Assembly: GCF_055900595.2 (NCBI RefSeq)
Contig: NZ_CM148325.1
Strand: one strand, 5' to 3'
Length of the DNA stretch: 64,000 bases
Position 1 is the first letter of the stretch. The number at the start of each line of letters is the position of its first letter. Below the pieces are notes generated by a model that was not told the DNA's origin, did no database searches, and saw only the letters and a program-made list of their open reading frames with translations. Below are positions 8,840 through 24,934 of the stretch, one piece after another. The translations under genes and the position numbers were made by a program.

Positions 8840-10240
8840 ATGCCACATTCCTACGATTACGATGCCATAGTAATAGGTTCCGGCCCCGGCGGCGAAGGCG
8901 CTGCAATGGGCCTGGTTAAGCAAGGTGCGCGCGTCGCAGTTATCGAGCGTTATCAAAATGTTGGCGGCGGTTGCACCCACTGGGGCACCATCCCGTCGAA
9001 AGCTCTCCGTCACGCCGTCAGCCGCATTATAGAATTCAATCAAAACCCACTTTACAGCGACCATTCCCGACTGCTCCGCTCTTCTTTTGCCGATATCCTT
9101 AACCATGCCGATAACGTGATTAATCAACAAACGCGCATGCGTCAGGGATTTTACGAACGTAATCACTGTGAAATATTGCAGGGGAACGCTCGCTTTGTTG
9201 ACGAGCATACGTTGGCGCTGGATTGCCCGGACGGCAGCGTCGAAACACTAACTGCTGAAAAATTTGTTATTGCCTGCGGTTCTCGTCCATATCATCCAAC
9301 AGATGTTGATTTCACCCATCCACGCATTTATGACAGCGACTCAATTCTTAGCATGCACCACGAACCGCGCCATGTACTTATTTACGGTGCTGGAGTGATC
9401 GGCTGTGAATATGCGTCGATCTTCCGCGGTATGGATGTAAAAGTGGATCTGATCAACACCCGCGATCGTCTGCTGGCGTTTCTCGATCAAGAGATGTCAG
9501 ATTCTCTCTCCTATCACTTCTGGAACAGTGGCGTAGTGATTCGTCACAACGAAGAGTACGAGAAGATCGAAGGCTGTGACGACGGTGTGATCATGCATCT
9601 GAAGTCGGGTAAAAAACTGAAAGCTGACTGTCTGCTCTATGCCAACGGTCGCACCGGTAATACCGATTCGCTGGCGTTACAGAACATTGGGCTGGAAACT
9701 GACAGTCGCGGACAGCTGAAGGTCAACAGCATGTATCAGACCGCGCAGCCGCACGTTTACGCGGTGGGCGACGTGATTGGTTATCCGAGCCTGGCGTCGG
9801 CAGCCTATGACCAGGGGCGTATTGCCGCACAGGCGCTGGTGAAAGGTGAAGCCACCGCACATCTGATTGAAGATATCCCTACCGGTATTTACACCATCCC
9901 GGAAATCAGCTCTGTGGGCAAAACCGAACAGCAGCTGACCGCGATGAAAGTGCCATATGAAGTGGGCCGCGCCCAGTTCAAACATCTGGCACGCGCACAA
10001 ATCGTCGGCATGAACGTGGGCACGCTGAAAATTTTGTTCCATCGGGAAACAAAAGAGATTCTGGGCATTCACTGCTTTGGCGAGCGCGCTGCCGAAATTA
10101 TTCATATCGGTCAGGCGATTATGGAACAGAAAGGTGGCGGCAACACTATTGAGTACTTCGTCAACACCACCTTTAACTACCCGACGATGGCGGAAGCCTA
10201 TCGGGTAGCCGCGTTAAACGGTTTAAACCGCCTGTTTTAA
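8840..10240 (+). CDS. sthA: soluble pyridine nucleotide transhydrogenase
   Basis: 466-aa ORF with an FAD-binding GSGPGG motif and a pyridine nucleotide-disulfide oxidoreductase fold; matches SthA/UdhA over its full length as I recall it. Its 3' end overlaps oxyR by 18 nt. Confidence 0.95.
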
Positions 10241-11140
10241 CACTTTATCGAAATGGCCATCCATTCTTGCGCGGATGGCCTCTGCCAGCTGCTCATAGCG
10301 GCTGCGCAGCGGTGAGCCCGGACGATAAACCAGGCCAATAGTGCGGCGTGGTTCCGGCTTAATACACGGCAAATAAACAACCCCATCGCGTTTACGCTCC
10401 GGCGGCACAGCCAGCGCAGGCAGTAAAGTGATCCCGCTACCTGCCGCCACCATGTTGCGCAGAGTTTCCAGGCTGGTCGCGCGGAAGTGTGTATCTTCAT
10501 CCGCCCCGGCTTCAAAGCAGAAACCCATTGCCTGATCGCGCAAACAGTGACCATCTTCCAGCATCAGCAGTTTTTCCCCTGCCAGATCGGCCATTGGTAC
10601 GCATTCGCGGTTCGCCCACGGGTGATCTTCATAGATAGCCAGCAACATTGGCTCATCAAACAACGGCACTTCAATGAATGCTTCGCTCTCTTTCACCAGC
10701 GCGAGGATCACGCAATCGAGTTTGCCGCTGTCCAGTTGCGCCAGTAACTGGTGGGTCTGTGCTTCATGCAGATACATTTCCAGCTTTGGAAAGGTCTGGT
10801 GCAGCATCGGGATAATATGCGGTAACAGGTAAGGCCCAACCGTGGGAATCAAACCAATATGCAGCGGCCCGGACATTGTCTCGCCCTGCTGGCTTGCCAT
10901 CTCTTTAAGGACTTTCACCTCACGCAGCACGGTACGCGCCTGATCCACCAGCAGCATTCCCGCCTGGGTGAATAACACTTTACGGCTGGTCCGCTCCAGC
11001 AACATCACGCCCAGCTCATCTTCCAGCTTACGAATTTGCCCGCTAAGCGTCGGCTGGCTAACGTGGCAGGAATCTGCCGCACGCCGAAAATGACGGTGTT
11101 CAGCCAATGCCACCAGGTACTCAAGATCACGAATATTCAT
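10223..11140 (-). CDS. oxyR: LysR-family hydrogen peroxide-inducible regulator
   Basis: ORF 10223..11170; the internal start [40 protein letters not shown] gives 305 aa, the length I recall for OxyR, and includes redox Cys199 and Cys208. Confidence 0.95.
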
Positions 11141-11235: not shown

Positions 11236-11352
11236 GAAACGGAGCGGCACCTCTTTTAACCCTTGAAGTCACTGCCCGTTTCGAGAGTTTCTCAACTCGA
11301 ATAACTAAAGCCAACGTGAACTTTTGCGGATCTCCAGGATCCGCTTTTTTTT
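11236..11352 (+). ncRNA. oxyS: OxyS small regulatory RNA with intrinsic terminator
   Basis: Sequence GAAACGGAGCGGCACCTCTTTTAACCCTTGAAGTCACTGCCCGTTTCGAGAGTTTCTCAACTCGAATAACTAAAGCCAACGTGAACTTTTGCGGATCTCCAGGATCCGCTTTTTTTT matches oxyS; the 3' hairpin GCGGATC...GATCCGC is followed by a U-run. Confidence 0.92.
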
Positions 11353-11391
11353 ATTCTACAGGCCCACAGCAAGAGAGCCTGATAGTAACAG

Positions 11392-12675
11392 TTACTCAAT
11401 CCGATCTTTGACAATAAAGAAGTAACACAGCGCCCCGGTGAACGTCACACAGGCCGCGATAACCAGCGCCAGATTAAACGAGTGCGTGGTATCCACTACC
11501 CAACCGGTTACGATCGGAGCAAAGGAAGCAAAAACAAAACTGCCAAAGTTTTGAATCCCGGCGATGGAAGCCACTTTTGTTTCTGACACCATCACCTGCA
11601 CCAGTCCCCATGCAGATGTTCCCGCGAAATGCACGCAGAACAGCGCCATTGAGATAAACGCTACAGCCTGGGCTGGCGAGGAGGATTGCACGACCAGCAA
11701 CGTGCCTAATGCCGACATCATCAAACCGCAGACAATAGCCGTTTTACGCGTCTTCGCCAGGTCGTAGCCTTTTTTCGCCAGCCGATCGACAACAATACCG
11801 TTAACCCACATCCCGACCGCCGCCGCGAGGAAAGGAATCGCCGCCACCCAACCGGTTTTCGCCAGACTGAAGCCTTGCTCGGCTTGTAAATAACCGGGTA
11901 ACCACGCGATGTAGAGCCAACCGGTATAATTGACGCCAGAGAAACCTAAAATCATCCCCCAGGTTGTCCGATGCTTAAACAGCGCCAGCCACTCGCTAAA
12001 TTGTAATTGTGGACGCGGTTTAACCGGCGCGGAGAGATAGGTCCGTTCTTCGTCGGTCAGGACAAACTGCGCCCGGTTGCGATACCACGCGTACCAACAG
12101 ATCCCAACCAGAATCCCCGCCACGCCGATGATGACGAACATTGCCCGCCAGCCCCATGCCAGCTGCATCAATACAAGAGCAGGAGGCGCAATAGCCTGAC
12201 CGATAACGGTAGATGAGTTAAAAATCCCCAGCGCCGTGCCGCGTTCTTTTTGCGCATACCAGTCGGTGATCGACTTTACTCCCGCAGGCATAAATGGCGC
12301 TTCGCCAATACCCAGACCGATACGCATTAAAATAAAGTGGCTAAAAGAATTAACCATTCCTGTTAATGCCTGCATTAATGACCAGAATATTAAGCCTGCA
12401 CCTAAAACTATTCGTGGGCCAAAGCGGTCTAGCAAAATACCGGAAGGGAGTTGTGAAAAACCATAAGACAGAGAAAATGCAGAAAGCAAAACGCCAAATT
12501 CTGTCGCCGATAATCCTAACTCGCCACGAATCGCTTCGCCTGCCACGCTCAATGACGAACGGTCGAGGAAATTAACGATCCCCGCCATAAATAATAAAAC
12601 CAGCGTTACTGTCTGAATACGACGAATCCGTTGCGGTTTATTACCCGCAACACTGGTTGACACATCAACGTCCAT
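11392..12675 (-). CDS. MFS transporter, anion:cation symporter family (sugar-acid permease, DgoT/GudP-like)
   Basis: 427-aa ORF with about 12 predicted TM segments and an N-terminal FLDRSSLSVAG motif, reminiscent of hexuronate/aldonate ACS-family permeases. Confidence 0.75.
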   Translation of the reverse strand: MDVDVSTSVAGNKPQRIRRIQTVTLVLLFMAGIVNFLDRSSLSVAGEAIRGELGLSATEFGVLLSAFSLSYGFSQLPSGILLDRFGPRIVLGAGLIFWSLMQALTGMVNSFSHFILMRIGLGIGEAPFMPAGVKSITDWYAQKERGTALGIFNSSTVIGQAIAPPALVLMQLAWGWRAMFVIIGVAGILVGICWYAWYRNRAQFVLTDEERTYLSAPVKPRPQLQFSEWLALFKHRTTWGMILGFSGVNYTGWLYIAWLPGYLQAEQGFSLAKTGWVAAIPFLAAAVGMWVNGIVVDRLAKKGYDLAKTRKTAIVCGLMMSALGTLLVVQSSSPAQAVAFISMALFCVHFAGTSAWGLVQVMVSETKVASIAGIQNFGSFVFASFAPIVTGWVVDTTHSFNLALVIAACVTFTGALCYFFIVKDRIE

Positions 12676-12741
12676 TTTTAGCTCCTTGAGCGGAATTAAT
12701 CGATTTGCTGACTATTCAGAAAATAATTAAGCGAACCGTTA

Positions 12742-13956
12742 TTACCAGTTCCACAATGTGCCATCTTCCAGTCGTGCGACGGGGAGATACGCCGGGTCAT
12801 ACGGATATTTCGCCGCCAGTTTCTCATCGAAAGAAATACCCAGCCCCGGTTCATCGCCTGGGTGCATATAACCTTCATCGAAGCGCCAGCTGTGCGGGAA
12901 GACTTCAAGCATTTGTTCGGAATAGCCCATGTACTCCTGAACACCAAAGTTTGGCACCCAGAGGTCAAAATGCAGCGCCGCCGCATGACAAACAGGCGAT
13001 AAATCTGAAGGGCCATGCGAACCGGTACGTACCTGATAAAGCGATGCAAAATCGGCAATCCGTCGCATCCCGGTAATGCCGCCTGCATGGGTAATCGTCG
13101 TGCGAATATAGTCAATCAGCTGCTCTTCGATTAACTGCTTGCAGTCCCAGATACTGTTAAACACTTCACCGACCGCAATCGGCGTCACAGTATGCTGGCG
13201 AATCAGACGAAAACATTCCTGGTTCTCGGCAGGCGTCGGATCTTCCATCCAGAACAGGCGGTAATCCTCTATGCTCTTCCCAAAGCGTGCCGCTTCGATA
13301 GGAGTCAGGCGATGGTGCATGTCATGCAACAGATGTTCGTTAAAACCGAACTTATTACGCACCGCTTCAAATAACTTCGGTGTAAAATCGAGATACTTTT
13401 CTGAAGACCACAACTGCTCTTCCGGCCACAGGCCTTTGGTTGCCGGTTCATACGCCAGTCCTTTGCCCTTCGCCAGGCCATAAGTGGTTTGCATACCCGG
13501 TACACCGCACTGCACACGAATCGCCTTAAAGCCCATCTGCTGGTGCTTTGCATAGTCTTCAAGGACTTCATCAATCGTGCGCCCGGTGGTGTGGCAATAA
13601 ACCATCACGCCTTCACGAGAAGCCCCACCAAGCAGTTGATACAATGGCATATTTGCCGCTTTGGCTTTGATATCCCACAACGCCATATCAATGGCAGAAA
13701 TGGCCGACATCGTGACGGGGCCACGTCGCCAGTAAGCACCTTTATAAAAGAATTGCCAGATATCTTCGATACGACTGGCATCGCGGCCAATTAATTGTGG
13801 ACAAAGATGATCTTTCAGATAAGAAGCGACCGACAATTCGCGACCATTTAATGTGGCATCTCCCAATCCACAAAGTCCGCTTGCAGTGGTTATTTTAAGC
13901 GTAACGAAATTACGTCCTGGGCAAGTAACAAAAACATCTGCAGCAATAATTTTCAT
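12742..13956 (-). CDS. enolase-superfamily dehydratase, RspA/ManD-like (putative D-mannonate/aldonate dehydratase)
   Basis: ORF 12742..14016; from the internal Met ([24 protein letters not shown]...) it is 404 aa and aligns along its whole length with the E. coli starvation-sensing protein RspA as I recall it. Confidence 0.8.
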
Positions 13957-14343
13957 TATTGCAATCTCCTGTGTTGTAAATAGACGCTTCAAACTTAATT
14001 TTACGCCTACTACCATACAAGAGAGAAAGAGCGATTATTCAACCGTGATCACATTAAAAATAAAAATTTCCACCGAGGAACAAAAATATCCTCAAATCTC
14101 ACCTACACTATTAACTACCATCGTTAAAACAACGTGTTAAATAATCACATAACAAATTCCTTTAAGGAAGGGAGTTATAACAACAACAAAAGATAATCAT
14201 ATTTTACTTAATTCAATACGTATCGATAGGTTTATTTAAAAAGGATTTTTCGGAATGAGAGATGAAAAGAAGATACACAAGCAGGAAGAAATACGATTAA
14301 TATTAGTTGCGGTAAGGGTAGCCGTTCCTCCCTTCCGCAACCC

Positions 14344-14444
14344 ATTAACCGTTGAAGTCACAGACTATTTCAGGCATTTCTCAACTCAAAATAACGACAG
14401 CCAACGTGAACTTTATGGCTCTCCAGGATCTGCTTTGTTTTCCA
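14344..14444 (+). other. degenerate duplicate of the oxyS 3' half (relic, not a functional gene call)
   Basis: Roughly 75-80% identity by eye to oxyS 11262..11352 on the same strand (shared blocks TTAACC, TTGAAGTCAC, TTTCTCAACTC, AGCCAACGTGAACTTT, CTCCAGGATC). The terminator stem is eroded. Ends exactly at the kinase stop codon. Confidence 0.6.
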
Positions 14445-15923
14445 TCAAACAACGGAGCTCAGCGCACTGGCTACCTGTTTAAAGCGAGCAAACCGTCGCC
14501 TGAGCATGTGTGCTTTTTCTACATTCGGTTCAAGACGAATCACGTTGAGCTGCGTAGCCTTCATGGCCTGTTTGAATCCAGAATAAGCCCCTCCTCCTAC
14601 TGCCGCACACATTGCAGCCGCTCTACAACCTGACTGTTCAATATCGACAATTTCAAGAGGCATTTTGCTGGCATCACAAAACATCTGCATCCAGATTCTG
14701 GAATGCGTTGGCCCGCCAGAGAAACGAATCGTTTGCAATGACTTATCAATCTCAATAAGACGGTCCTGATGCAACAAATGAGAAAAGACAATGCCCTGAT
14801 AAATAGCGTACACCAAATCTTCTCTTTTATGATGCCCACACAGCCCCAAAAATCCCCCGCTTAATGCCTCATGGTAATTCGAGCCAAACAACCACGGGAA
14901 AAAGAGAATATCATTCTGCTTCTCATACCCTCGTTCCACCCACTCATTAATCACCCGATAACTGTCAGGAAGATCCGGTAAAAATTGCTGCAAGAACCAT
15001 GTCAAATTACTGGCTGATGTAGGGCTTCCCTCATGGGCGAAAAATGTACCTGGAATGCTAAATTTCCCCCATACATAGGGATAATCAGAAGGAATAATGC
15101 GATCAAAGATTCGCGTTGCAATTGACCAGGTGCCAGCAACCGCACTTAACGTTGTACTGTCATAGATGCCAGAAGTGAGCGCCGCACCAACGACATCAAA
15201 AACACCACCAAAAACAGGCGTTCCGGCGAGAAGCCCACATTGGCTGGCTGCTTCAGATGTCACAAACCCAGCTAAATCAGCGGAGCCAATAATATCGGGA
15301 ACCTTACCCGCAACTTCCTTAATCTCAAATAGGCGAAAAAGTTCAGCATCATAAGCACTGGTATATTGATTATAAAAATTACTGCCTGAAATATTGGTTT
15401 CTTCACAAGCCAGTTTGCCAGTAAGCCGTGAACGTATGTAATCATGAACCATCAAAATGGTTCCGATGCGGCCATAATTGTCAGTCTCATGTTTTTTCAA
15501 CCAATGCAATAGTGCTACAGGGTGCGATGGCCAGAGCTGTTGCAGACTACGGTGATAACTTTCGCGGTCAATTCCTTGTTCTTTCCAGCTTGCAACCAGT
15601 TGTTGTGCGCGAGAATCAGAGGAAACAATGCCGTGTCGTAAGGGCTTACCTTGCCGGTCGAGCAGGTACAAACCTTTACCATGAGCAGAAAAACTGATGC
15701 CATCAATCTGACTCGCAGTAATATTGTTATCTGACATCGACAGTGAAATGACCTGGCACGTTACCTTCCATAACGCCTCCATGTCGCGTTCGCAAAAACC
15801 AGGACATGGGCTTAACAGAGGTAACGCCTGCGAAGAGACACCTATTTCACGTCCTTCTGCCGTATAAATTCCCGCTTTGGTTTCTGTACCACCTAAATCG
15901 ACACCAATAAAATACCGCTCCAT
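14445..15923 (-). CDS. FGGY-family carbohydrate kinase, L-xylulokinase (LyxK)-like
   Basis: 492-aa ORF with an N-terminal GVDLGGT phosphate-binding motif; global resemblance to E. coli LyxK/SgbK. Confidence 0.8.
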   Translation of the reverse strand: MERYFIGVDLGGTETKAGIYTAEGREIGVSSQALPLLSPCPGFCERDMEALWKVTCQVISLSMSDNNITASQIDGISFSAHGKGLYLLDRQGKPLRHGIVSSDSRAQQLVASWKEQGIDRESYHRSLQQLWPSHPVALLHWLKKHETDNYGRIGTILMVHDYIRSRLTGKLACEETNISGSNFYNQYTSAYDAELFRLFEIKEVAGKVPDIIGSADLAGFVTSEAASQCGLLAGTPVFGGVFDVVGAALTSGIYDSTTLSAVAGTWSIATRIFDRIIPSDYPYVWGKFSIPGTFFAHEGSPTSASNLTWFLQQFLPDLPDSYRVINEWVERGYEKQNDILFFPWLFGSNYHEALSGGFLGLCGHHKREDLVYAIYQGIVFSHLLHQDRLIEIDKSLQTIRFSGGPTHSRIWMQMFCDASKMPLEIVDIEQSGCRAAAMCAAVGGGAYSGFKQAMKATQLNVIRLEPNVEKAHMLRRRFARFKQVASALSSVV

Positions 15924-15939
15924 GATCCCTCCTTAGTTT

Positions 15940-16803
15940 CTAAATATTATCCCAGCCGGCAAAGCGCATTTTCTCTTCAATCCATTGACGTGCATGAATA
16001 ATTTCTAATAGAGGTTCCGTCGCTTTTTCTGTCCACATTTCTATCAGAAACGTTCCGCGATAATTAAGATTACGCAGGATCTTAAATAATTTAATAAAAT
16101 CTACACACCCTTCACCAAAAGGAACGTCACGAAATTGCCCTGGAGAATCAGGCGTTACTGGGTACGTATCTTTAAGATGGATTGCGGCAATTCGATCAAT
16201 CCCCTTTACCAGCTCACTTTCCAGTTCATTACCCCATGCGGTCAGATTGCCAACATCCGGATAAACGGTAAACCAAGGGGAATTAATTTTTGTATCCAGG
16301 ACTTTCCATTTACTAATAGAATTAATAAATGGCGTATCCATGATCTCTACAGCACACATAACTTGTGCCGCTGCGGCCTGTTCAGCTGTCCAGGCCATCG
16401 CATCTTCAAACCAGGCGATAGTTTCTTCATTCTGCGGCTCATAATAAACGTCATAGCCTGCCAGTTGGATTGTTCGAATCCCCAAATCCTGCGCCAGGCG
16501 TAACGCCTTCAACATAATCGTACGTGCCTGCTGACGAGTATCTCTATCATGGCTACCAAATGGAAAACGCCGGTGAGCAGACAGGCACATTGTCGGAATA
16601 CGGATCCCCGTTTGCTGAATGGCGCTAATAAGCTCCATACGCTCGGTGAGCGACCAGTCCAGGCGGGCGAGTCGTTCATCATTCTCATCTACCGACATCT
16701 CAACAAAATCAAAACCGCAAGATTTAGCCAGGGCTAGTTTCTCTACCCAACTGGTATTCCTGGGTAGCGCTTTTTCATAAATACCTAACGGGTGGCGTCG
16801 CAT
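15940..16803 (-). CDS. L-ribulose-5-phosphate 3-epimerase (UlaE/SgbU family, TIM barrel)
   Basis: 287-aa ORF; the N-terminal LGIYEKALP...FDFVEMSVDE...RLDWS...CLSAHRRFP pattern matches UlaE/SgbU closely. Confidence 0.82.
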   Translation of the reverse strand: MRRHPLGIYEKALPRNTSWVEKLALAKSCGFDFVEMSVDENDERLARLDWSLTERMELISAIQQTGIRIPTMCLSAHRRFPFGSHDRDTRQQARTIMLKALRLAQDLGIRTIQLAGYDVYYEPQNEETIAWFEDAMAWTAEQAAAAQVMCAVEIMDTPFINSISKWKVLDTKINSPWFTVYPDVGNLTAWGNELESELVKGIDRIAAIHLKDTYPVTPDSPGQFRDVPFGEGCVDFIKLFKILRNLNYRGTFLIEMWTEKATEPLLEIIHARQWIEEKMRFAGWDNI

Positions 16804-17879
16804 TATTTTCCCTCACGAGTGATCAATTGTTGTTGAAAGATTTTCCGGCTCTTATTCATGTCACGCTGCAACTGCCATTTTTGTTTGATGAATTTAAATG
16901 CCAGTGCGGCGATCAATGTGATCCCCCATACCGCCAGATTGAAATGCAAACTAAGTCCCAACAGACTAAGGCCGGTAGCAATAACCTGAAGCACAAGTAA
17001 GGCACAAAAAACATGACTGACTTTACCCGCCCCACCGAATGGATCTGTGCCTCCCAATACAATTGCAAGAACCGTCAAGAGCAGATAGGAATCGCCATAG
17101 CCCATACGCGCCGAATTAAATCGCGCGAGCATAATAAGACCTGCTAATACACACAACATGCTGGATATAGCATATATAGCAATTAATACGCGGTCGGTGC
17201 GAATACCGCTAAACCATGTGGCGTTAATATTACTGCCACACATATAAATCGTTTTTCCCGTACGGGTTTTGCCGAGGAACAGAGCTAAAGCAACGGTGGT
17301 GACGATAAAAATTATCATCGGTACTGGGATCCCCATGATAACTTCAGACCCAATACTGCGGACTACTGGTGGCATACCACTTAAAGCTGCCCCCTTAGTC
17401 AGGTAAATACCGATACCACTAATAATGGTCATGCTACCCAATGTGACCAAAATAGGGTGAGCGCCTATATGAGAAATAATTGACCCAGTAATAGCTCCAA
17501 TGATGATGGCAATAAGCATCGCCCCGACAATAGCCAGGAAGAGCCAAAACAACTGACTACCTGTAGATGCATCTGCGGGTACATATTGAATCAACAGCCA
17601 GGCCATAAACAGGCTGGTCAGATTCGCAGTACCGATGATTGCCAGATTGAGCCCCCCGCTCAACATGGGTATAAACATCGCAAACGTGAGCAACCCAAGC
17701 TCTGGCAATTGAAATGCAATGCTCAGAAAAGTATTGCCGGTGAAAAAACGCCCCGGCATTACCAGACTAAATAACACCACCGCAATAAAACATATTGATA
17801 ATAAGCCTGAACTGGTACCATCTAGTGGAAAAAATATCCGCTTGTTCATTTCGATCCTCCCGTTAGACGAAACCAACAT
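16803..17879 (-). CDS. monosaccharide ABC transporter permease (CUT2 family)
   Basis: 358-aa polytopic membrane protein immediately downstream of a paralogous permease. True start may be the internal Met (MNKRIFF) at 17849. Confidence 0.75.
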   Translation of the reverse strand: MLVSSNGRIEMNKRIFFPLDGTSSGLLSICFIAVVLFSLVMPGRFFTGNTFLSIAFQLPELGLLTFAMFIPMLSGGLNLAIIGTANLTSLFMAWLLIQYVPADASTGSQLFWLFLAIVGAMLIAIIIGAITGSIISHIGAHPILVTLGSMTIISGIGIYLTKGAALSGMPPVVRSIGSEVIMGIPVPMIIFIVTTVALALFLGKTRTGKTIYMCGSNINATWFSGIRTDRVLIAIYAISSMLCVLAGLIMLARFNSARMGYGDSYLLLTVLAIVLGGTDPFGGAGKVSHVFCALLVLQVIATGLSLLGLSLHFNLAVWGITLIAALAFKFIKQKWQLQRDMNKSRKIFQQQLITREGK

Positions 17880-18855
17880 CAGTTTCTTTACGTTTTTTGT
17901 AATGGGTCACACAAATCGCCGAGACAATAACCACTCCAATAACGATATTGACGAAATAACTCGAGATGCCAATCAAATTAAGGCCGTTTTTAAGAATACC
18001 GATAAGAAATACGCCCATAAGCGTACCAATGACCGTACCACGTCCGCCTGATAAACTGGCACCGCCCAATACCGCTGCAGCCAGCACATCCAACTCTCCG
18101 CCAACCAATGCATTCGGCACAACTTCACTCATACGGTAAGCTTGCAGCATTCCACCAATTGCTGCAGCGGCACCAAGATAACCATAAGCAAACAGATAAA
18201 TTAGCGACACCCGAATCCCAATACGTCTTGCTGATTCGGTATTCCCTCCCACGGCATAAAGCTGACGCCCAATATGGGTTTTGTTCATTATCATCCACGT
18301 CAGAAATGCCATTCCCAGCATAACCACTAACGGTAATCCGATCTGGTAATCTTCTCCGCCAAATTCAAAACTCAGGAAAGAACGCTGCGTAATCCACCAA
18401 TCCGGTAAATCGTAAATACTGTGGCCATTAGTCAACCACATCAACATACCGAACAGTAGCGACTGCATACTAATCGTAATGATGATGGAAACGACATTAA
18501 GGTAATAAATAAGAATAGCGTTTATCAAACCAAAAATGATGCCAAGAAAAACAGCAAACACCAGACAGAAAAATGGATTTGATAGCGTTTCATTAAGCAG
18601 TAACGACGCCACAACATATTGCACAACCGAAGCTACTGCTGCAAAAGAGATATCAATTCCGCCAGTAACCAATACGACAAATAATCCGAGGGCGAAAATA
18701 CCCGTTACGGCATAACTTTCCGAGAGATCGAGCAAGTTCTGTATTGATAAAAACTCATCGCTCATGATGGAAAAAAATACCAGCATGAGAACAATGACCC
18801 ATCCTAACCAAGCTTCGACTGAACGAGGAAACCGCAGCCGCATAAAGCTAACCAT
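17863..18855 (-). CDS. monosaccharide ABC transporter permease (CUT2 family)
   Basis: 330-aa polytopic membrane protein; start overlaps the ATPase stop by 8 nt (translational coupling). Confidence 0.75.
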   Translation of the reverse strand: MVSFMRLRFPRSVEAWLGWVIVLMLVFFSIMSDEFLSIQNLLDLSESYAVTGIFALGLFVVLVTGGIDISFAAVASVVQYVVASLLLNETLSNPFFCLVFAVFLGIIFGLINAILIYYLNVVSIIITISMQSLLFGMLMWLTNGHSIYDLPDWWITQRSFLSFEFGGEDYQIGLPLVVMLGMAFLTWMIMNKTHIGRQLYAVGGNTESARRIGIRVSLIYLFAYGYLGAAAAIGGMLQAYRMSEVVPNALVGGELDVLAAAVLGGASLSGGRGTVIGTLMGVFLIGILKNGLNLIGISSYFVNIVIGVVIVSAICVTHYKKRKETDVGFV

Positions 18856-20365
18856 TAATCACCTCCGCCAACTGCTGCTCGGTATAATTCGAAGGCAACA
18901 GCTCATTAATAATCTTTCCGCGCTTCATATGAAAAATACGATCGCAGTTATAATAAGCTTCTGGTGCTTCATCAGTAATTAATATCACTGAAATACCCAC
19001 ACCTGAAAGCCGATGAATAAGCTGGTAAATACTATCTTTTGCGCCAATATCTACACCTACCGTTGGCGCATCCAGAATTAAAACCTTAGGTCGTGTTAAA
19101 ATCCATTTAGCCAGGACAACCTTTTGTTGATTGCCGCCAGATAGCGTTGAAAGTGGATTATTTGGATCGGTGACTTTAATATCCAAATCCTGGATCCACT
19201 CCTTGACTAAGGTTTCTTTTCGATTTTCATCAATAAACCCCGATGCCGTCTTTAAACGATCCAGAATCGAGAGCACCATATTATCGCTGATAGATTGGGG
19301 TAATACGGCCCCCAGTGTCAGGCGATCTTCTGAAACATATGCTATTCCCAGTTTTACCGCATGCGTGTTGTCTTTAATTGTAACGGGCTTACCTTCCAGA
19401 TAAATATCACCACTATCTGGTCGAGTAATACCGAAAAGACTCAATGCTAATTCAGTTCTCCCCGCACCAAGTAAACCACACAATCCCAGAACCTCGCCCT
19501 GGTGTAGTTTTAGAGAAACATCTTCAAATTGCCCTTTTCTGCATAATTTGTTTAGTTCAAGGACTACTTTGCCTTCAACGCTATTTGGTAGCTTCTTCTG
19601 GTGGACTATAGTTTTTCCGGTCATTAACTCAGTAATATCGCCCGGAGAAAGTTGATTGGCAGCCCACGTTCCAATTATCTCTCCATCACGGATGACCGTA
19701 ATCCGATCTGAAATTTCCTTAACTTCATCAAGGCGGTGGCTAACAAAAACTACGGTAATATTTTTATCGCGTAAGTAATTCACTGTGCGTAGTAATTGAT
19801 TAACTTCTGTACGCGTCAATGATGCCGTTGGCTCGTCCATGATGACTAAGCGGGCATCGGCAATCAGAGCCCGGCAAATCGCGACCTGTTGGCGTTGTGC
19901 AATCGGCAAATGTTGTACTAACGCATCAGGATCGAGATTGAATTGCAGCTCCTGAATTATTTTCTGCGATACATCTCGAAGTTGTTTTTTTCTGTGCAGC
20001 CCTAAATATCCCTTCAGGTTGTATTCAAAAGCGATATTTTCAGCAACAGAAAGATTTGGGAATAAAGAAAGATCCTGATATATCACCTGAATACCCAGTT
20101 CCCGAGCTTTATCAGGAGAAAGACGAGTCCAGGACTTACCATCTATAATAATTTCACTTCCCGAATCAGGGACATAAACACCACACAGCGTTTTGATCAG
20201 AGTACTTTTACCACACCCATTCGCACCAGCAAGACAATGAACCTCACCTTTATTTAAGGTAAGATTGATATTCTTTAGAGCCCTATGGCCACCGAAACTT
20301 TTCGTTAGTGACCTTAGCGTCACTAATGGTTGCTCCGCATTCTTCTCTATAATATGAGGCATCAT
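18848..20365 (-). CDS. sugar ABC transporter ATP-binding protein with duplicated nucleotide-binding domains
   Basis: 505-aa ORF with Walker A GANGCGKST, a second P-loop GLLGAGRTE and the ABC signature LSGGNQQKV; architecture of RbsA/AraG/LsrA-type importers. Confidence 0.85.
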   Translation of the reverse strand: MMPHIIEKNAEQPLVTLRSLTKSFGGHRALKNINLTLNKGEVHCLAGANGCGKSTLIKTLCGVYVPDSGSEIIIDGKSWTRLSPDKARELGIQVIYQDLSLFPNLSVAENIAFEYNLKGYLGLHRKKQLRDVSQKIIQELQFNLDPDALVQHLPIAQRQQVAICRALIADARLVIMDEPTASLTRTEVNQLLRTVNYLRDKNITVVFVSHRLDEVKEISDRITVIRDGEIIGTWAANQLSPGDITELMTGKTIVHQKKLPNSVEGKVVLELNKLCRKGQFEDVSLKLHQGEVLGLCGLLGAGRTELALSLFGITRPDSGDIYLEGKPVTIKDNTHAVKLGIAYVSEDRLTLGAVLPQSISDNMVLSILDRLKTASGFIDENRKETLVKEWIQDLDIKVTDPNNPLSTLSGGNQQKVVLAKWILTRPKVLILDAPTVGVDIGAKDSIYQLIHRLSGVGISVILITDEAPEAYYNCDRIFHMKRGKIINELLPSNYTEQQLAEVING

Positions 20366-20428
20366 AATATTCCTGAATACGACTAAAGGAATTCCGGGTC
20401 AAATTTGACCCGGTGATTTACAGTAAAA

Positions 20429-21433
20429 TTACAAGCCTAGCTTCACTAAACGTCGTGTATTTTCAAGATCGAGCTTTTCTGGATTATCACTATAAATAGT
20501 GTTGTTATTAACCTTGATCTCGCCCATATCACCGATTTTTACACCGTCTTTAATAGGTTCACCGTTCATCATTGCCGTCGCAACCTGGACAAAAACCTTA
20601 CCCGCAATCATAGGGTTTGAAATATATCCCCCATCAATGGCACCTTTTTCGAGTAGCTTAATTCCCTGACCTGGAGTGAAGGTTCCAAAAACGCAAATTG
20701 CATCATTTTTCTTCCGCTTATCAATAGCACGCCCCGCACCAATTGGTCCTTGTGAACCAAATGACATAATGCCTTTAAGATCTTTATATTTAGACATTAA
20801 ATCGTTCGTCGTGCGCATTGAATCATCCACCGACTCAGCAACACCAAAACGATCTTCAACCAACGTCATATTTGGATAATGTTCTTTTTGATAGGCAATC
20901 GCGGCATTGGCCCAGTCATTTACCAAAGGCACAGTCAGACTGCCGACAAACATGGCGTATTTACCTTCTTCGCCCATACACTTCGCCATATCTTTCATAT
21001 GATTGGCACCCATTGTCTGGGTATTTAACAACTCAAAATCCCAATCTGCATTTTTTTGATCTGGTGATTCGTGGGTAATAACTTTAATACCGGCTTCTTG
21101 TGCACGCTTAAGTACAGGTTCAAGAACCTTTGCATCGTTAGGAACAACACCAATAACATCCACTTTTCGTGCAATTAAATCTTCAATCGCCCGAACCTGT
21201 TCAGCTGGATCTGCCGTTGTAGGGCCGACCTGCCATGCATCAACCCCCAATAGTTTTCCTTCATTTTTAATGCCTTGTTCCATCACATTAAACCAGGGAA
21301 TTCCACCGACTTTTACTACTACCCCCATCGTAAAAGGTTTATTCGCTTTTTGTGATGTTACAGTCTGATCAGCCCATGCAGCAGTGGAAGATAATACGGT
21401 AGCAATAAGGCAGGGTAAGATTAATTTTTTCAT
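20429..21433 (-). CDS. periplasmic sugar-binding protein (type I PBP, ABC substrate-binding component)
   Basis: 334-aa ORF with an N-terminal signal peptide (MKKLILPCLIATVLSSTAAWA) and LsrB/RbsB-like fold features; first gene of the transporter operon. Confidence 0.75.
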   Translation of the reverse strand: MKKLILPCLIATVLSSTAAWADQTVTSQKANKPFTMGVVVKVGGIPWFNVMEQGIKNEGKLLGVDAWQVGPTTADPAEQVRAIEDLIARKVDVIGVVPNDAKVLEPVLKRAQEAGIKVITHESPDQKNADWDFELLNTQTMGANHMKDMAKCMGEEGKYAMFVGSLTVPLVNDWANAAIAYQKEHYPNMTLVEDRFGVAESVDDSMRTTNDLMSKYKDLKGIMSFGSQGPIGAGRAIDKRKKNDAICVFGTFTPGQGIKLLEKGAIDGGYISNPMIAGKVFVQVATAMMNGEPIKDGVKIGDMGEIKVNNNTIYSDNPEKLDLENTRRLVKLGL

Positions 21434-21555
21434 CGTAATTTCCTTAAGAAATAGTTCAGGTGTCAGGAAAACTCGATATAATATCGACCTGACTATTTAT
21501 ATAATTTATAATCCCTTAGGCATTGATTAATAATTTAGACAATAAATAACGCCTA

Positions 21556-22365
21556 TTATTTATCAACCTCCACAATGTTTAATTGTGGAAATTGTGTTCG
21601 ATACCGAGTATCTGTACAAACATTAGTCACCAGAATATCGATTTCATCCAGCGTGCATATTTTACTAAATGCATACTGTTCAAACTTAGTGGAGTCGACC
21701 AGCAATATTTTTTGTCCTGACACCTGAAGCATCACCTGTTTAAGTCTGGCATTAATTTCACTGCCATCGCGGACACCATTCCCCAGATTCAACCCCTGGC
21801 ATGAAAAGAAAAAACTGTTGATTTGAAAATTTCGGATCGCACTCTCTGCAACCGGGCCATGAAAATCATCATGTCGCTCAGAATACTCACCACCGATACC
21901 AATAATTCGAACTCGATCACGGCAAGCTAACGCCTGAATTATCCGTAATGAATTTGTAACTACGGTAACATCTATATCGGGAATTTGACGAGCTAAAAAC
22001 CAACAAGTACTACTGTTATCCATTAAAATACAATCACCAGGGTGAATAAATTGCAATGCGGCCTTCGCAATTCTGGCTTTTATATCAGGATTTTCTTCAG
22101 TCCGTTTACGGAATGATTCCGCACGATCGATACTATTATCTTGCCACGCATTATCGGCGAGCATAACCGGAGCGCTATCAGATGAATCCAGAGCGACCGC
22201 GCCACCAAAGCTACGGATTAACTTTTTGTTGCGCTCCAGTACCGTTAAATCCCGACGAATTGTCTCAGGAGACGCTTTAAATAATCGTGATAATTCAGTT
22301 ACCCGCACAGCACCTTGTTTTTGTACATGTGCGCATATCATTTTATGGCGCTCTGCCTGCAACAT
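21556..22365 (-). CDS. DeoR-family transcriptional regulator
   Basis: 269-aa ORF with an N-terminal HTH (VRVTELSRLFKASPETIRRDLTVLE) and a C-terminal DeoR sugar-phosphate-binding domain. Confidence 0.8.
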   Translation of the reverse strand: MLQAERHKMICAHVQKQGAVRVTELSRLFKASPETIRRDLTVLERNKKLIRSFGGAVALDSSDSAPVMLADNAWQDNSIDRAESFRKRTEENPDIKARIAKAALQFIHPGDCILMDNSSTCWFLARQIPDIDVTVVTNSLRIIQALACRDRVRIIGIGGEYSERHDDFHGPVAESAIRNFQINSFFFSCQGLNLGNGVRDGSEINARLKQVMLQVSGQKILLVDSTKFEQYAFSKICTLDEIDILVTNVCTDTRYRTQFPQLNIVEVDK

Positions 22366-22806
22366 AGTATCGGTCCGTTATTATCAAATTAGCATGCTTA
22401 TATAATTAACTGTTCCCTCATAAAATAAAGTGATAGGAATCAAGATTCATTTTATAATTATAATCGCAAACAGGAATGGTGATCTTTATCACAAATTAAA
22501 TTGAGAACACTCTACTATTTGACATTACTTTGAGATATCGGTCACTAAATAAGTCTTATTCTGCCATCTAACGAAAAATTTAAATACAAAAACAAAAATA
22601 ATCGGGCATAGCAATCGCTTCCATTCATGACCGAATACGCCCGAATAAAACCGTTTATACCCACTTATCCTCTTTCGTTGCCTTCTTACATGCCTTGAAT
22701 ATTTTACATTTCTTATATTCAGCGTAATTTAGGAAACATAATTTATGAGCAAAAAAAGCCCAAACTCAAAAGTTAAAGTTTATTTATATAATACATACAG
22801 ATTATC

Positions 22807-23511
22807 GTGGAGTTAAAAATGGATATGCTAAAGGAAAAAGTTCTTGCTGCGAATTTATCATTACCCCTTCATCAGTTAGTGACGTTTACCTGGGGAAATG
22901 TTAGTGGTGTTGATCGCGAAAAAGGTGTCATGGTTATTAAACCTTCTGGGGTCGAATACAGCCAAATGGGCATTGCAGATATGGTGGTAGTGGATTTACA
23001 AAGTGGTGAAGTTATTGATGGACACAGGAAACCCTCTTCAGACACCGATACTCATCTGGCGCTATACCGTGCTTTCCCGGATATTGGTGGTATCGTTCAT
23101 ACCCATTCCCGACACGCCACAATATGGGCTCAGGCCGGAAAAGATCTCACGGCCTTTGGGACAACCCACGCTGATTATTTCTACGGCACTATCCCCTGTA
23201 CACGCCCCATGAAGGATGACGAAATTAATGGACAATATGAATATGAAACGGGGCGAGTGATTATTGAAACGTTCAGACAACGAGAAATATCTCCCGCTGA
23301 CATTCCGGCTGTTTTAGTAAACAGTCATGGCCCCTTTGCCTGGGGAACTGATCCCGCGAACGCCGTGCATAACGCCGTTGTACTTGAAGAAATTGCCTAT
23401 ATGAATCTCTTTACACAACAACTACAGCCCCATCTTACGGCTATTCAACAGCCTCTACTGGATAAGCATTTTTTACGCAAGCATGGTGCCAATGCTTATT
23501 ACGGGCAGTAA
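22807..23511 (+). CDS. L-ribulose-5-phosphate 4-epimerase (class II aldolase fold, AraD/SgbE/UlaF family)
   Basis: 234-aa ORF closely resembling AraD ([74 protein letters not shown]), including the conserved metal-binding His residues. Confidence 0.85.
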
Positions 23512-23560
23512 CCCTCTTAGCATGGCCTGGCGTTTTGCCAAGCCATAAATCGCCTAAGAC

Positions 23561-24934
23561 TTACTCCAACCGCGCCTGCGCAAAAGCAATCGCCTGCGCC
23601 ACCTGCTGCGGTGAGACGCCGCCTTTTGCCGCACGCTTGTCGAGGCACGATTGCAGCGACAGAATCGGATAGACATCTTCGCCAATCACCTGACTGAATT
23701 TCTGCAACTCACTGAGCGGCAGATCTTCCAGCGGTTTGCCCTGACGAATGGCTTCCACCACCGCTTCACCAACAATATGGTGCGCCTCGCGGAACGGCAC
23801 ACCTTTCGCCACCAGGTAATCCGCCAGTTCAGTGGCGTTCGCATACCCCTGCTGCGCCGCTTCCTGGCAACGTGGGCGTTTCACCTGAATGCCGTCCAGC
23901 ACCAGCGCCGCCATATGCAGGCAGTCCAGCCAGGTATCGAGCGCGTCGAACAGACCTTCTTTGTCTTCCTGCATATCTTTGTTATAAGCCAGCGGCAAAC
24001 CTTTCAGCGTCATCATCATGCCAGTCAACGCGCCCTGAACACGACCGCATTTACCGCGAATCAGCTCCAGCGCATCCGGGTTTTTCTTCTGCGGCATTAA
24101 TGATGAACCGGAAGTCACGCGATCAGAAAGCTCCACAAAACCCGCTTCGCCGGTGTTAAAGAAAATCAGATCTTCGGCAAAACGCGACAAATGCACCATA
24201 CCGATAGCGGCGGCAGAAAGCAGTTCCAGCACGTGGTCGCGGTCAGAAACGCTGTCGAGACTGTTACGGGTCGCCGAAGCAAAGCCCAGCCAGCCTGCTA
24301 ACTGTTCACGGTCGATTTCATAGGCCGTTCCCGCTAGTGCGCCACAGCCTAACGGGCTGACATCCAGACGCTTAAGCGCATCCTGCAAACGGCTTTCATC
24401 ACGCGCCAGCATCTCAACATAGGCCAGGCACCAGTGCGCGAACGTCACCGGTTGGGCGCGTTGCAGGTGAGTGTAACCTGGCATTACCGCGTCCTGATTG
24501 TTTTGTGCGGTTTCCACCAGCGCCGATTGCAGCTGTCGGTTAGCCGTCAGCAACTCGCTAACGGTATCCTTGCACCACAGTTTCAGATCGGTCGCCACCT
24601 GATCATTACGGCTACGCCCGGTGTGCAGTTTTTTGCCTAACTGGCCCACTTTGTCGATCAGTTTGCCTTCCACCCAGCTATGGATATCTTCGGCGTCGCT
24701 TTCAAGAATTTGTTGTGGCCTGGCGCGAACATCTTCCAGCAGCACATTGAGCGCCTCTTCCAGTTGCACCTGTTCTTCTGCGGTTAACACGCCTACCGTT
24801 ACCAGCGCTTTGGACCAGGCCACAGAGCCAACAATATCCTGCTCCGCCAGACGGTAATCAAAGCGCAGTGAGTCGTTGAATTGTTTAAACCGTTGATCTG
24901 CTGCCTGGGTAAAACGCCCGCCCCAAAGTGCCAT
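23561..24934 (-). CDS. argH: argininosuccinate lyase
   Basis: 457-aa ORF ([44 protein letters not shown]...) with the fumarate-lyase signature [12 protein letters not shown]. Confidence 0.95.

Follow-up and report, generated by a model that had tools for sequence, protein, structure and literature searches.

A decayed copy of oxyS between two gene cassettes in the oxyS-argH interval of Escherichia coli

Results

Organization of the oxyS-argH interval

The window, that is, the whole 64,000-nt stretch of DNA analysed here (contig NZ_CM148325.1 of RefSeq assembly GCF_055900595.2), is a segment of an E. coli chromosome. It carries an rrn operon, murI, btuB with a cobalamin riboswitch, trmA, yijD, fabR, sthA and oxyR, followed by oxyS. 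The oxyR gene (10223..11140, minus strand; identified as an ORF, by the RefSeq annotation of an identical strain and by 100% tblastn identity) forms the conserved left flank of a variable region, and argH (23561..24934, minus strand) is its conserved right flank. OxyS RNA is an OxyR-induced, Hfq-binding small RNA (sRNA) that is encoded divergently from oxyR in Enterobacteriaceae. In the window, the functional oxyS gene, comprising the sRNA and its terminator T-run (11236..11352, plus strand), is likewise divergent from oxyR; its positions 11236-11345 score 139.5 bits against the Rfam OxyS model. This gene is also the left copy of a direct repeat. In strain K-12, oxyS and argH are only ∼55 nt apart, whereas in the window a 12.2-kb insert (11353 to ∼23550) lies between them.

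The insert is composed, in this order, of a first cassette (M1), a decayed second copy of oxyS (referred to as the relic), and a second cassette (M2). M1 (11353..13956, minus strand) begins directly 3' of the oxyS T-run and encodes an MFS transporter (11392-12675) and a D-mannonate dehydratase, ManD (12742-13956), which was assigned by the NCBIfam ManD equivalog model (731 bits). The manD upstream spacer (13957..14311), with a putative old haplotype breakpoint near 14165, separates it from the relic (pseudo-oxyS; 14312..14441, plus strand). M2 (14445..23511) was defined from ORFs, the RefSeq annotation of the identical strain and NCBIfam. On the minus strand, it encodes an FGGY kinase (14445-15923), an L-ribulose-5-P 3-epimerase (15940-16803), two ABC permeases located between the 3-epimerase and ATPase genes, the ATPase (18848-20365), a binding protein (20429-21433) and a DeoR regulator (21556-22365). 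The only plus-strand gene of M2 is the divergent L-ribulose-5-P 4-epimerase gene araD (22819-23511). The araD-argH intergenic region (23512..23560) contains the hairpin GCCTGGCGTTTTGCCAAGCC.

The T-run of the relic ends at 14441 and is followed by CCA and then by the stop codon of the kinase gene (14445-14447, minus strand). The relic is situated between the MFS/dehydratase module and the ABC-kinase operon, on the same strand as oxyS and ending at the kinase stop, just as an earlier reading of this DNA, made from the sequence alone, had described. The ORF list of the window shows no further large ORF in the insert. According to the RefSeq annotation of the identical strain, the oxyS-argH interval holds transport, catabolic and regulator genes only, and genes for an integrase, excisionase, transposase or other mobility function are absent from both cassettes.

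The relic is a pseudogene of oxyS

Within the window, blastn aligned oxyS positions 11256-11352 with 14345-14441, both on the plus strand, at 80.6% identity over 98 columns; the two copies are same-strand direct repeats 3.1 kb apart. The Smith-Waterman score of the relic against oxyS was 98, compared to 17.7±2.3 for dinucleotide shuffles (maximum 29; none of 2000 reached 98), a difference of 35 standard deviations. A BLAST search of 28 Gb of E. coli genomes with the relic region matched the true oxyS of essentially every genome (∼80% over 105 nt, E=3e-14). An nhmmer profile derived from 33 enterobacterial oxyS loci, including the conserved oxyR-oxyS intergenic region, gave 38.6 bits on the window (14338-14442) and 44.9 bits on a second E. 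coli allele (N3). The Rfam OxyS model (RF00035) aligned along its entire length, positions 1-110, to 14312-14434 with 30.1 bits (E=4e-4 in an 801-nt search), which is less than half of the 75-bit gathering score of the family and hence not the score of a functional member; OxyS was the only plausible Rfam family match. Taken together, the relic shows significant, collinear, same-strand similarity to oxyS. This agrees with the sequence-only reading, in which blocks conserved between this segment and oxyS were noted, and the BLAST, shuffling and profile results rule out an unrelated terminator family as its source.

The secure homology covers oxyS nucleotides ∼21-117, corresponding to 14338 or 14345 (depending on the search) to 14441. 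The repeat had previously been described as one of the oxyS 3' end: the homology stands, but its extent was underestimated, since nearly the whole sRNA is represented. The relic and OxyS have four blocks without mismatch in common (16, 11, 11 and 10 nt), and these include the linker AGCCAACGUGAACUUU. The covariance-model alignment places a 12-nt insertion into stem-loop a and is the sole source of the 5' extension to 14312. This 5' end is suggestive only, because the Smith-Waterman, nhmmer and ungapped comparisons of the 5' part were not significant. For the full-island haplotype (C-type, see below), similarity to the first 20 nt of oxyS was not significant on its own in pairwise, profile or anchored ungapped comparisons (P=0.34 for nucleotides 1-23), and neither was an ungapped match between the DNA upstream of the relic and the oxyS promoter from -50 to -1 (P=0.45). 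At the 3' end, we considered whether the homology extends beyond the T-run to the hairpin CCATAAAAAAGCC that follows oxyS in the K-12 type, and rejected this: what follows CCA is conserved coding sequence for the kinase C-terminus, which ends in ALSSVV in the window and in ALSTVAT in Citrobacter.

OxyS folds with -32.9 kcal/mol (z -2.84) into three hairpins and has an intact terminator. The fold of the whole relic has a z score of +1.25, and its minimum-free-energy structure contains none of the three helices. The terminator hairpin is predicted at -12.4 kcal/mol (z -4.4) in oxyS versus -2.3 kcal/mol (z +0.9) for its equivalent in the relic, in line with the degraded stem reported earlier, and the T-run of the relic is interrupted (TTTGTTTT). 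A functional OxyS has three stem-loops (a, b, c), of which c is the Rho-independent terminator followed by a U-run; the relic does not retain this architecture. No sigma-70-like promoter and no intrinsic terminator were predicted on either strand between 13900 and 14560, the manD upstream spacer contained no sigma-70 consensus promoter in either orientation, and the family profile detected no counterpart of the conserved OxyR-site promoter upstream of the relic. Its upstream neighbour is manD and not oxyR, and it thus lacks the setting of an OxyR-dependent gene. The minus-strand fold of the relic is unremarkable (z -0.2). The stretch from the kinase stop to manD lacks a predicted terminator, so that transcription of M2 probably continues across the relic in the antisense direction. 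The resulting antisense stretch would span ∼100 nt with ∼80% complementarity to OxyS, and its predicted duplex with OxyS has -117 kcal/mol, compared to -52±5 kcal/mol for shuffled sequences.

Two haplotypes carry the full island in E. coli: nine genomes are window-like, and 136 genomes, represented by N3, are 93.6% identical to the window over the relic region. Between them, 7 of 107 positions of the relic differ (6.5%), compared to 0 of 117 in the true oxyS. The flanking spacers differ by 5.7-7.5%, and the third codon positions of the neighbouring genes by 1-5%. The relic therefore changes at least as fast as flanking non-coding DNA and third codon positions, and we found no trace of purifying selection in this comparison, which rests on the only two haplotypes in the data; a metagenome scan with a relic-specific 21-mer returned just these two alleles and one chance match. 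The positions at which the alleles differ are found within the best-conserved blocks, and the oxyS-like states that persist are not the same in the two alleles, as predicted for independent neutral decay from a better-preserved ancestor. We conclude that the relic is a pseudogene of oxyS and not a working gene. In E. coli N3, manD is itself annotated as a pseudogene with an internal stop (locus L004, 9583-10797).

Occupancy of the interval in E. coli and other genera

About two thirds of 5,426 complete E. coli genomes have an empty, K-12-type gap between oxyS and argH. M1 is present in at least 1,859 of the 5,426 (∼34%), and ∼1,700 genomes carry M1 only (B-type). M2 occurs in 146 genomes and always together with M1 (C-type, the full island); M2 alone (type D, equivalent to C-type minus M1) was not found in any of the 5,426. 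The relic is present in 145 of the 146 M2-carrying genomes (2.7% of E. coli). The sole exception (RIVM_C036569, L134) has suffered an IS1 insertion with an adjacent deletion. Lost are manD, the spacer and the relic, together with the 5' portion of the MFS gene and the 3'-terminal part of the kinase gene. The M1-only haplotype was also found in E. whittamii and in Escherichia sp. E1V33. In B-type E. coli, the C-type, E. whittamii and E1V33 alike, M1 has its left junction precisely where the oxyS T-run ends, and the K-12 empty site and the C-type share this junction. Across the genera, the locus exists in four states: empty, M1, M2 (in Citrobacter), and M1 plus relic plus M2.

The right end of the B-type is not a simple deletion product of the C-type. 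Its spacer (L001 9300-9455, L078, L114) ends in a REP-like element and a different hairpin before argH. A truncated relic that had seemed visible by eye in this M1-only haplotype (TTAAATTTAAGCTCAC...) found no support, with a Smith-Waterman P of ∼0.13 and nothing found by nhmmer. A post-hoc ungapped match of the same spacer to the oxyS promoter from -50 to -1 (26/50, P ∼0.012) is treated as unproven.

In other genera, oxyS mostly adjoins argH directly. No second oxyS copy was found outside E. coli among the at least 120 loci listed, a set of genome contigs that does not include E. fergusonii, E. marmotae or E. ruysiae. In Citrobacter sp. R56, an MFS gene 92% identical to that of M1 is located right after oxyS. 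Two further Citrobacter strains have large, unrelated ORFs in the same gap: one of 815 aa without an NCBIfam match in C. amalonaticus S646 (L100, 1198-3645), and one of 727 aa with a weak lectin-domain match in C. braakii (L052, 1759-3942). Outside Escherichia, the M1 MFS gene has its closest relatives in Raoultella and Cedecea (L125-L127; 87-89% identity). These are found beside rspA/rspB-like genes at ynfA-ynfB-speG, with no oxyS nearby, a context that gives M1 the appearance of an rspA locus copy moved to a new site.

The M2 cassette in Citrobacter

In C. amalonaticus (L101, L132, L133), the M2 kinase gene is located directly downstream of a single intact oxyS of the Citrobacter type, without M1. 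The same abutment, again without M1, was found in Citrobacter sp. Cu233 (L029) and on the metagenomic contigs L130 and L131. In two of the C. amalonaticus loci (L132, L133), the M2 gene order is that of the window, through DeoR and araD to argH. About 90 nt, made up of a hairpin and a spacer, separate oxyS from the kinase gene in Citrobacter, compared to the 3 nt between T-run and kinase stop in the window.

The M2 cassette of C. amalonaticus (L132) is bracketed by a 37-nt direct repeat with 32 of 37 positions identical (86%; score 47 vs. 15±2.2 for shuffles). The oxyS T-run and the hairpin that follows it make up this repeat, which is single-copy in K-12; the cassette contains no recombinase gene. 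The hairpin at 23512-23560 of the window shows a weak relationship to the repeat copy on the argH side of the type-D cassette in Citrobacter (score 20 vs. 12.9±2.2, P=0.016). Since the T-run of the relic is only 3 nt away from the kinase stop, the oxyS-side copy appears to have been lost in the window. These arrangements suggest that cassettes at this site tend to be flanked by a duplicated attachment sequence without a recombinase. The pair of oxyS and pseudo-oxyS around M1 would then be a larger and older-looking example of the same pattern.

Identity of the island kinase to the type-D kinases of Citrobacter is 67-70%, and outside Escherichia none of its relatives exceeds 70%, whereas the remaining M2 proteins show 88-90% identity with their Citrobacter sp. 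Cu233 counterparts. The history of M2 is thus not one of simple shared inheritance, and the difference suggests uneven divergence or replacement of the kinase gene.

Source and age of the relic

We compared the relic with oxyS of other lineages by pairwise segments, as identities taken from the multiple alignment were unreliable for lineage assignment due to register shifts. Only the terminator discriminates between lineages; the 5' and middle parts are uninformative. The Escherichia oxyS terminator is GCGGATCTCCAGGATCCGC, the other sampled genera have hairpins of the GCGGACC..GTGGTCCGC type, and the relic reads TGGCTCTCCAGGATC(C/T)GC. Its terminator loop and 3' arm (TCTCCAGGATCC) are Escherichia-specific. 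The terminator of the N3 allele matches that of E. coli at 27 of 30 positions without gaps, whereas other genera match worse and require gaps. Two features of the relic are of a different kind: the linker state AACGA also occurs in some Citrobacter, and with its AAAATAAC run the relic comes nearer to AAATAAC, the non-Escherichia form. In the simplest interpretation of these sequence comparisons, the source oxyS belonged to the Escherichia lineage, possibly predating some of the Escherichia-specific changes. For the comparison with Salmonella, Citrobacter and Klebsiella proposed in the sequence-only reading, the terminator thus points to Escherichia and to none of these three. An Escherichia-type terminator would place the event in the Escherichia lineage, unless later gene conversion overwrote the relic; gene conversion from the resident oxyS could mimic such a signature.

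To the left of ∼14165, B-type and C-type haplotypes are 89-96% identical, with 89-93% over 13957-14165, and at 14166-14320, immediately to the left of the relic, they are only 56-61% identical. This sharp step in similarity near 14165 indicates what may be an old recombination breakpoint. Over 14166-14320, identity among the B-types from E. coli, E. whittamii and E1V33 is 76-87%, with 76% for E. coli versus E. whittamii. The B/C identity falls below these inter-species values, and the right-hand part of the C haplotype would therefore be an old lineage that split off before those species. The spacers have changed by ∼20% per lineage, which is comparable to the ∼19% one-sided decay of the relic. 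From these sequence distances we infer a joining event near or before the split of E. coli and E. whittamii-like lineages. A recent import is also argued against by the lack of any kinase relative above 70% outside Escherichia.

Discussion

Our results make it probable that the relic is a non-functional, neutrally decaying oxyS pseudogene at the junction of two sugar-utilisation cassettes stacked in the oxyS-argH hot spot. The recombination scar postulated in the sequence-only reading is thereby supported, as a non-functional relic at the seam of two cassettes. It is best read as the former border oxyS of the ABC/kinase haplotype, which was orphaned when oxyS-MFS-ManD joined upstream. The starting point would have been an Escherichia-lineage chromosome with the order oxyR-oxyS-M2-argH, an arrangement that is extant in Citrobacter. 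A segment consisting of oxyS, M1 and the spacer would then have joined immediately upstream of the resident oxyS, either by a Campbell-type single crossover within oxyS involving a circular intermediate, or by one homologous crossover on the oxyR side combined with one non-homologous join. One such event would yield two same-strand oxyS copies bracketing M1. The copy on the oxyR side would keep the OxyR-dependent promoter and stay under strong purifying selection. The distal copy, promoterless and redundant, would keep its kinase neighbour and accumulate ∼19% substitutions as well as indels, which would have destroyed all three stem-loops and the terminator. Both the direction and the mechanism of the joining event are what we infer from the present-day arrangements.

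The view that the ABC operon once abutted an oxyS terminator is supported with respect to the arrangement, which exists in Citrobacter; the donor genome from which it was thought to have come was apparently not of a foreign genus, given the Escherichia-type terminator, unless gene conversion has intervened. The separate acquisition of the MFS/dehydratase module between two existing oxyS copies is less economical than one event that joined the cassettes and duplicated oxyS at the same time. Either order of arrival of the ABC operon and the MFS/ManD module would fit, because M2 never occurs without M1 in the 5,426 E. coli genomes and occurs without the relic in just one, due to the IS1 deletion; both directions are variants of the same model.

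Several observations do not fit this orphaned-border scenario easily. No Escherichia with M2 only was found, and the Escherichia parent is hypothetical, with E. fergusonii, E. marmotae and E. ruysiae outside the sample. The M1-only haplotype has no detectable oxyS remnant at its right end, and a loss in the B-type would be needed if M1 always brings the duplication. The kinase is far less similar to its Citrobacter counterparts than the other M2 proteins are (67-70% vs. 88-90%). The oxyS-kinase spacing of 3 nt, instead of ∼90 nt as in Citrobacter, requires an extra deletion. Finally, gene conversion from the resident oxyS could be an alternative source of the Escherichia signature.

A related scenario, which we consider rather unlikely but the most serious competitor, leads to the same product and differs only in which partner was the recipient: a B-type E. 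coli (oxyS-M1) would have received M2 with the donor's oxyS as a passenger at its left end. The B-type is indeed common (∼1,700 genomes, as well as E. whittamii and E1V33) and the C-type rare (146), donors with oxyS abutting M2 exist, and to the right of ∼14165 the C haplotype is so deeply diverged from B as if the spacer end, the relic and M2 had come from a distant lineage. But the left join would have to lie inside the manD upstream spacer, where B and C are homologous up to ∼14320, so that the donor must also have carried M1 or at least the spacer, and the terminator of the relic is of the Escherichia type, unlike that of any sampled type-D genus. Much harder to accept is an in situ tandem duplication of oxyS followed by an independent insertion of M1. 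It would account for two same-strand direct repeats 3.1 kb apart; it also demands one more event and an insertion that by coincidence fell precisely between the two copies, no examined genome has two adjacent oxyS copies without M1, and the left junction of M1 at the T-run end in both B- and C-types is explained directly by a single joining event.

We give equally little credence to a relic that is still functional, be it as a plus-strand sRNA or decoy, as an antisense 3' UTR of the kinase operon pairing with OxyS, or as the terminator of M2. Such roles are suggested by the perfect blocks of 16, 11, 11 and 10 nt, the antisense duplex energy (-117 vs. -52±5 kcal/mol) and the probable antisense read-through in a region without a predicted terminator between the kinase stop and manD. 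They are at odds with an allelic divergence that is neutral or faster, even within the conserved blocks, with the lack of a predicted promoter and with the minus-strand z score of -0.2. Moreover, if 98 nt decayed uniformly by 20%, the longest perfect run should be ∼13 nt by our own estimate, close to the 16 nt observed, and the pairing potential follows trivially from the homology. A chance likeness of A/T-rich DNA or an unrelated terminator family, for which nothing but the low G+C content of the spacer speaks, can be discarded in view of the 35 standard deviations over shuffles, the E value of 3e-14 in 28 Gb, OxyS as the sole plausible Rfam family and the match of both alleles to the profile. 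The boldest extension of the antisense idea is a long shot: M2 operon transcripts that read through the relic would make the pentulose-utilisation operon an OxyS target under peroxide stress, or act as a sponge, and the cassettes at this locus would pass from genome to genome without an integrase, with excision and re-integration by means of the duplicated oxyS/terminator around them.

As a pseudogene, the relic can be set against known systems. It resembles OxyS RNA (RF00035) by ∼81% identity over nucleotides 21-117, on the same strand and in the block order loop a, linker, terminator; it differs in having no helices, no OxyR-site promoter, no oxyR neighbour and no terminator, in the 12-nt insertion in stem-loop a and in its neutral evolution. 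The att-like repeats of islands at the 3' ends of tRNA, tmRNA and sRNA genes are similar in that the cargo starts at the terminator end and an intact gene on one side is paired with a decayed copy on the other; Citrobacter M2 follows the same logic with its 37-nt repeat. Here, however, there is no mobility gene, and the repeat is ∼100 nt long and 19% diverged instead of a short exact att core. The repeats at the island ends, which share 81% over ∼100 nt in the case of M1 and 86% over 37 nt in that of C. amalonaticus M2, could represent old att-like duplications or result from homologous (Campbell-type) integration, and the mechanism was probably RecA-type or illegitimate recombination rather than site-specific.

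Small RNA loci are insertion hot spots for horizontally acquired DNA, such as the ryeA/ryeB locus in Salmonella. As there, a conserved sRNA gene forms a fixed border at oxyS while the cargo varies by strain or genus; two nested cassettes with a full-length sRNA pseudogene between them set the present locus apart. The relic is accordingly a tidy example of a known phenomenon, an ordinary scar, and not a new kind of element.

Two sRNA copies in one neighbourhood that arose by duplication are also known from OmrA/OmrB (mentioned in PMC3318445). Both of these are expressed and conserved, whereas one oxyS copy is dead here. PMC3318445 counts OxyS among the core sRNAs in a set of 27 E. coli/Shigella genomes, and its passages on oxyS and on duplication describe no second oxyS copy. 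In PMC8825220, oxyS is assigned to the oxyR-argH intergenic region, where it was born from the 3' end of a peroxidase mRNA in Enterobacteriaceae, and the content of this region is documented as evolutionarily fluid; a text search of that paper gave no mention of a duplication, pseudogene or second copy. Our literature search found no description of an oxyS pseudogene or a second oxyS copy.

Few bacterial sRNAs have been studied as thoroughly as OxyS, which is regarded as a core gene present in a single copy. A functional and a dead oxyS side by side provide a rare internal clock for the neutral decay of an sRNA, and the locus is a worked example of cargo cassettes stacked at a conserved sRNA/terminator border without mobility genes. 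It also calls for caution in annotation and sRNA-census pipelines, where searches run at a low threshold will report an additional oxyS for ∼2.7% of E. coli genomes. OxyS biology is unchanged unless the antisense-pairing idea is true.

At the right border of the island, 9.4% of the third codon positions of argH differ between the two full-island haplotypes, as does 12% of the araD-argH spacer, compared to 1-5% in the M2 genes. The divergence of argH and this spacer suggests a further recombination mosaic at that border.
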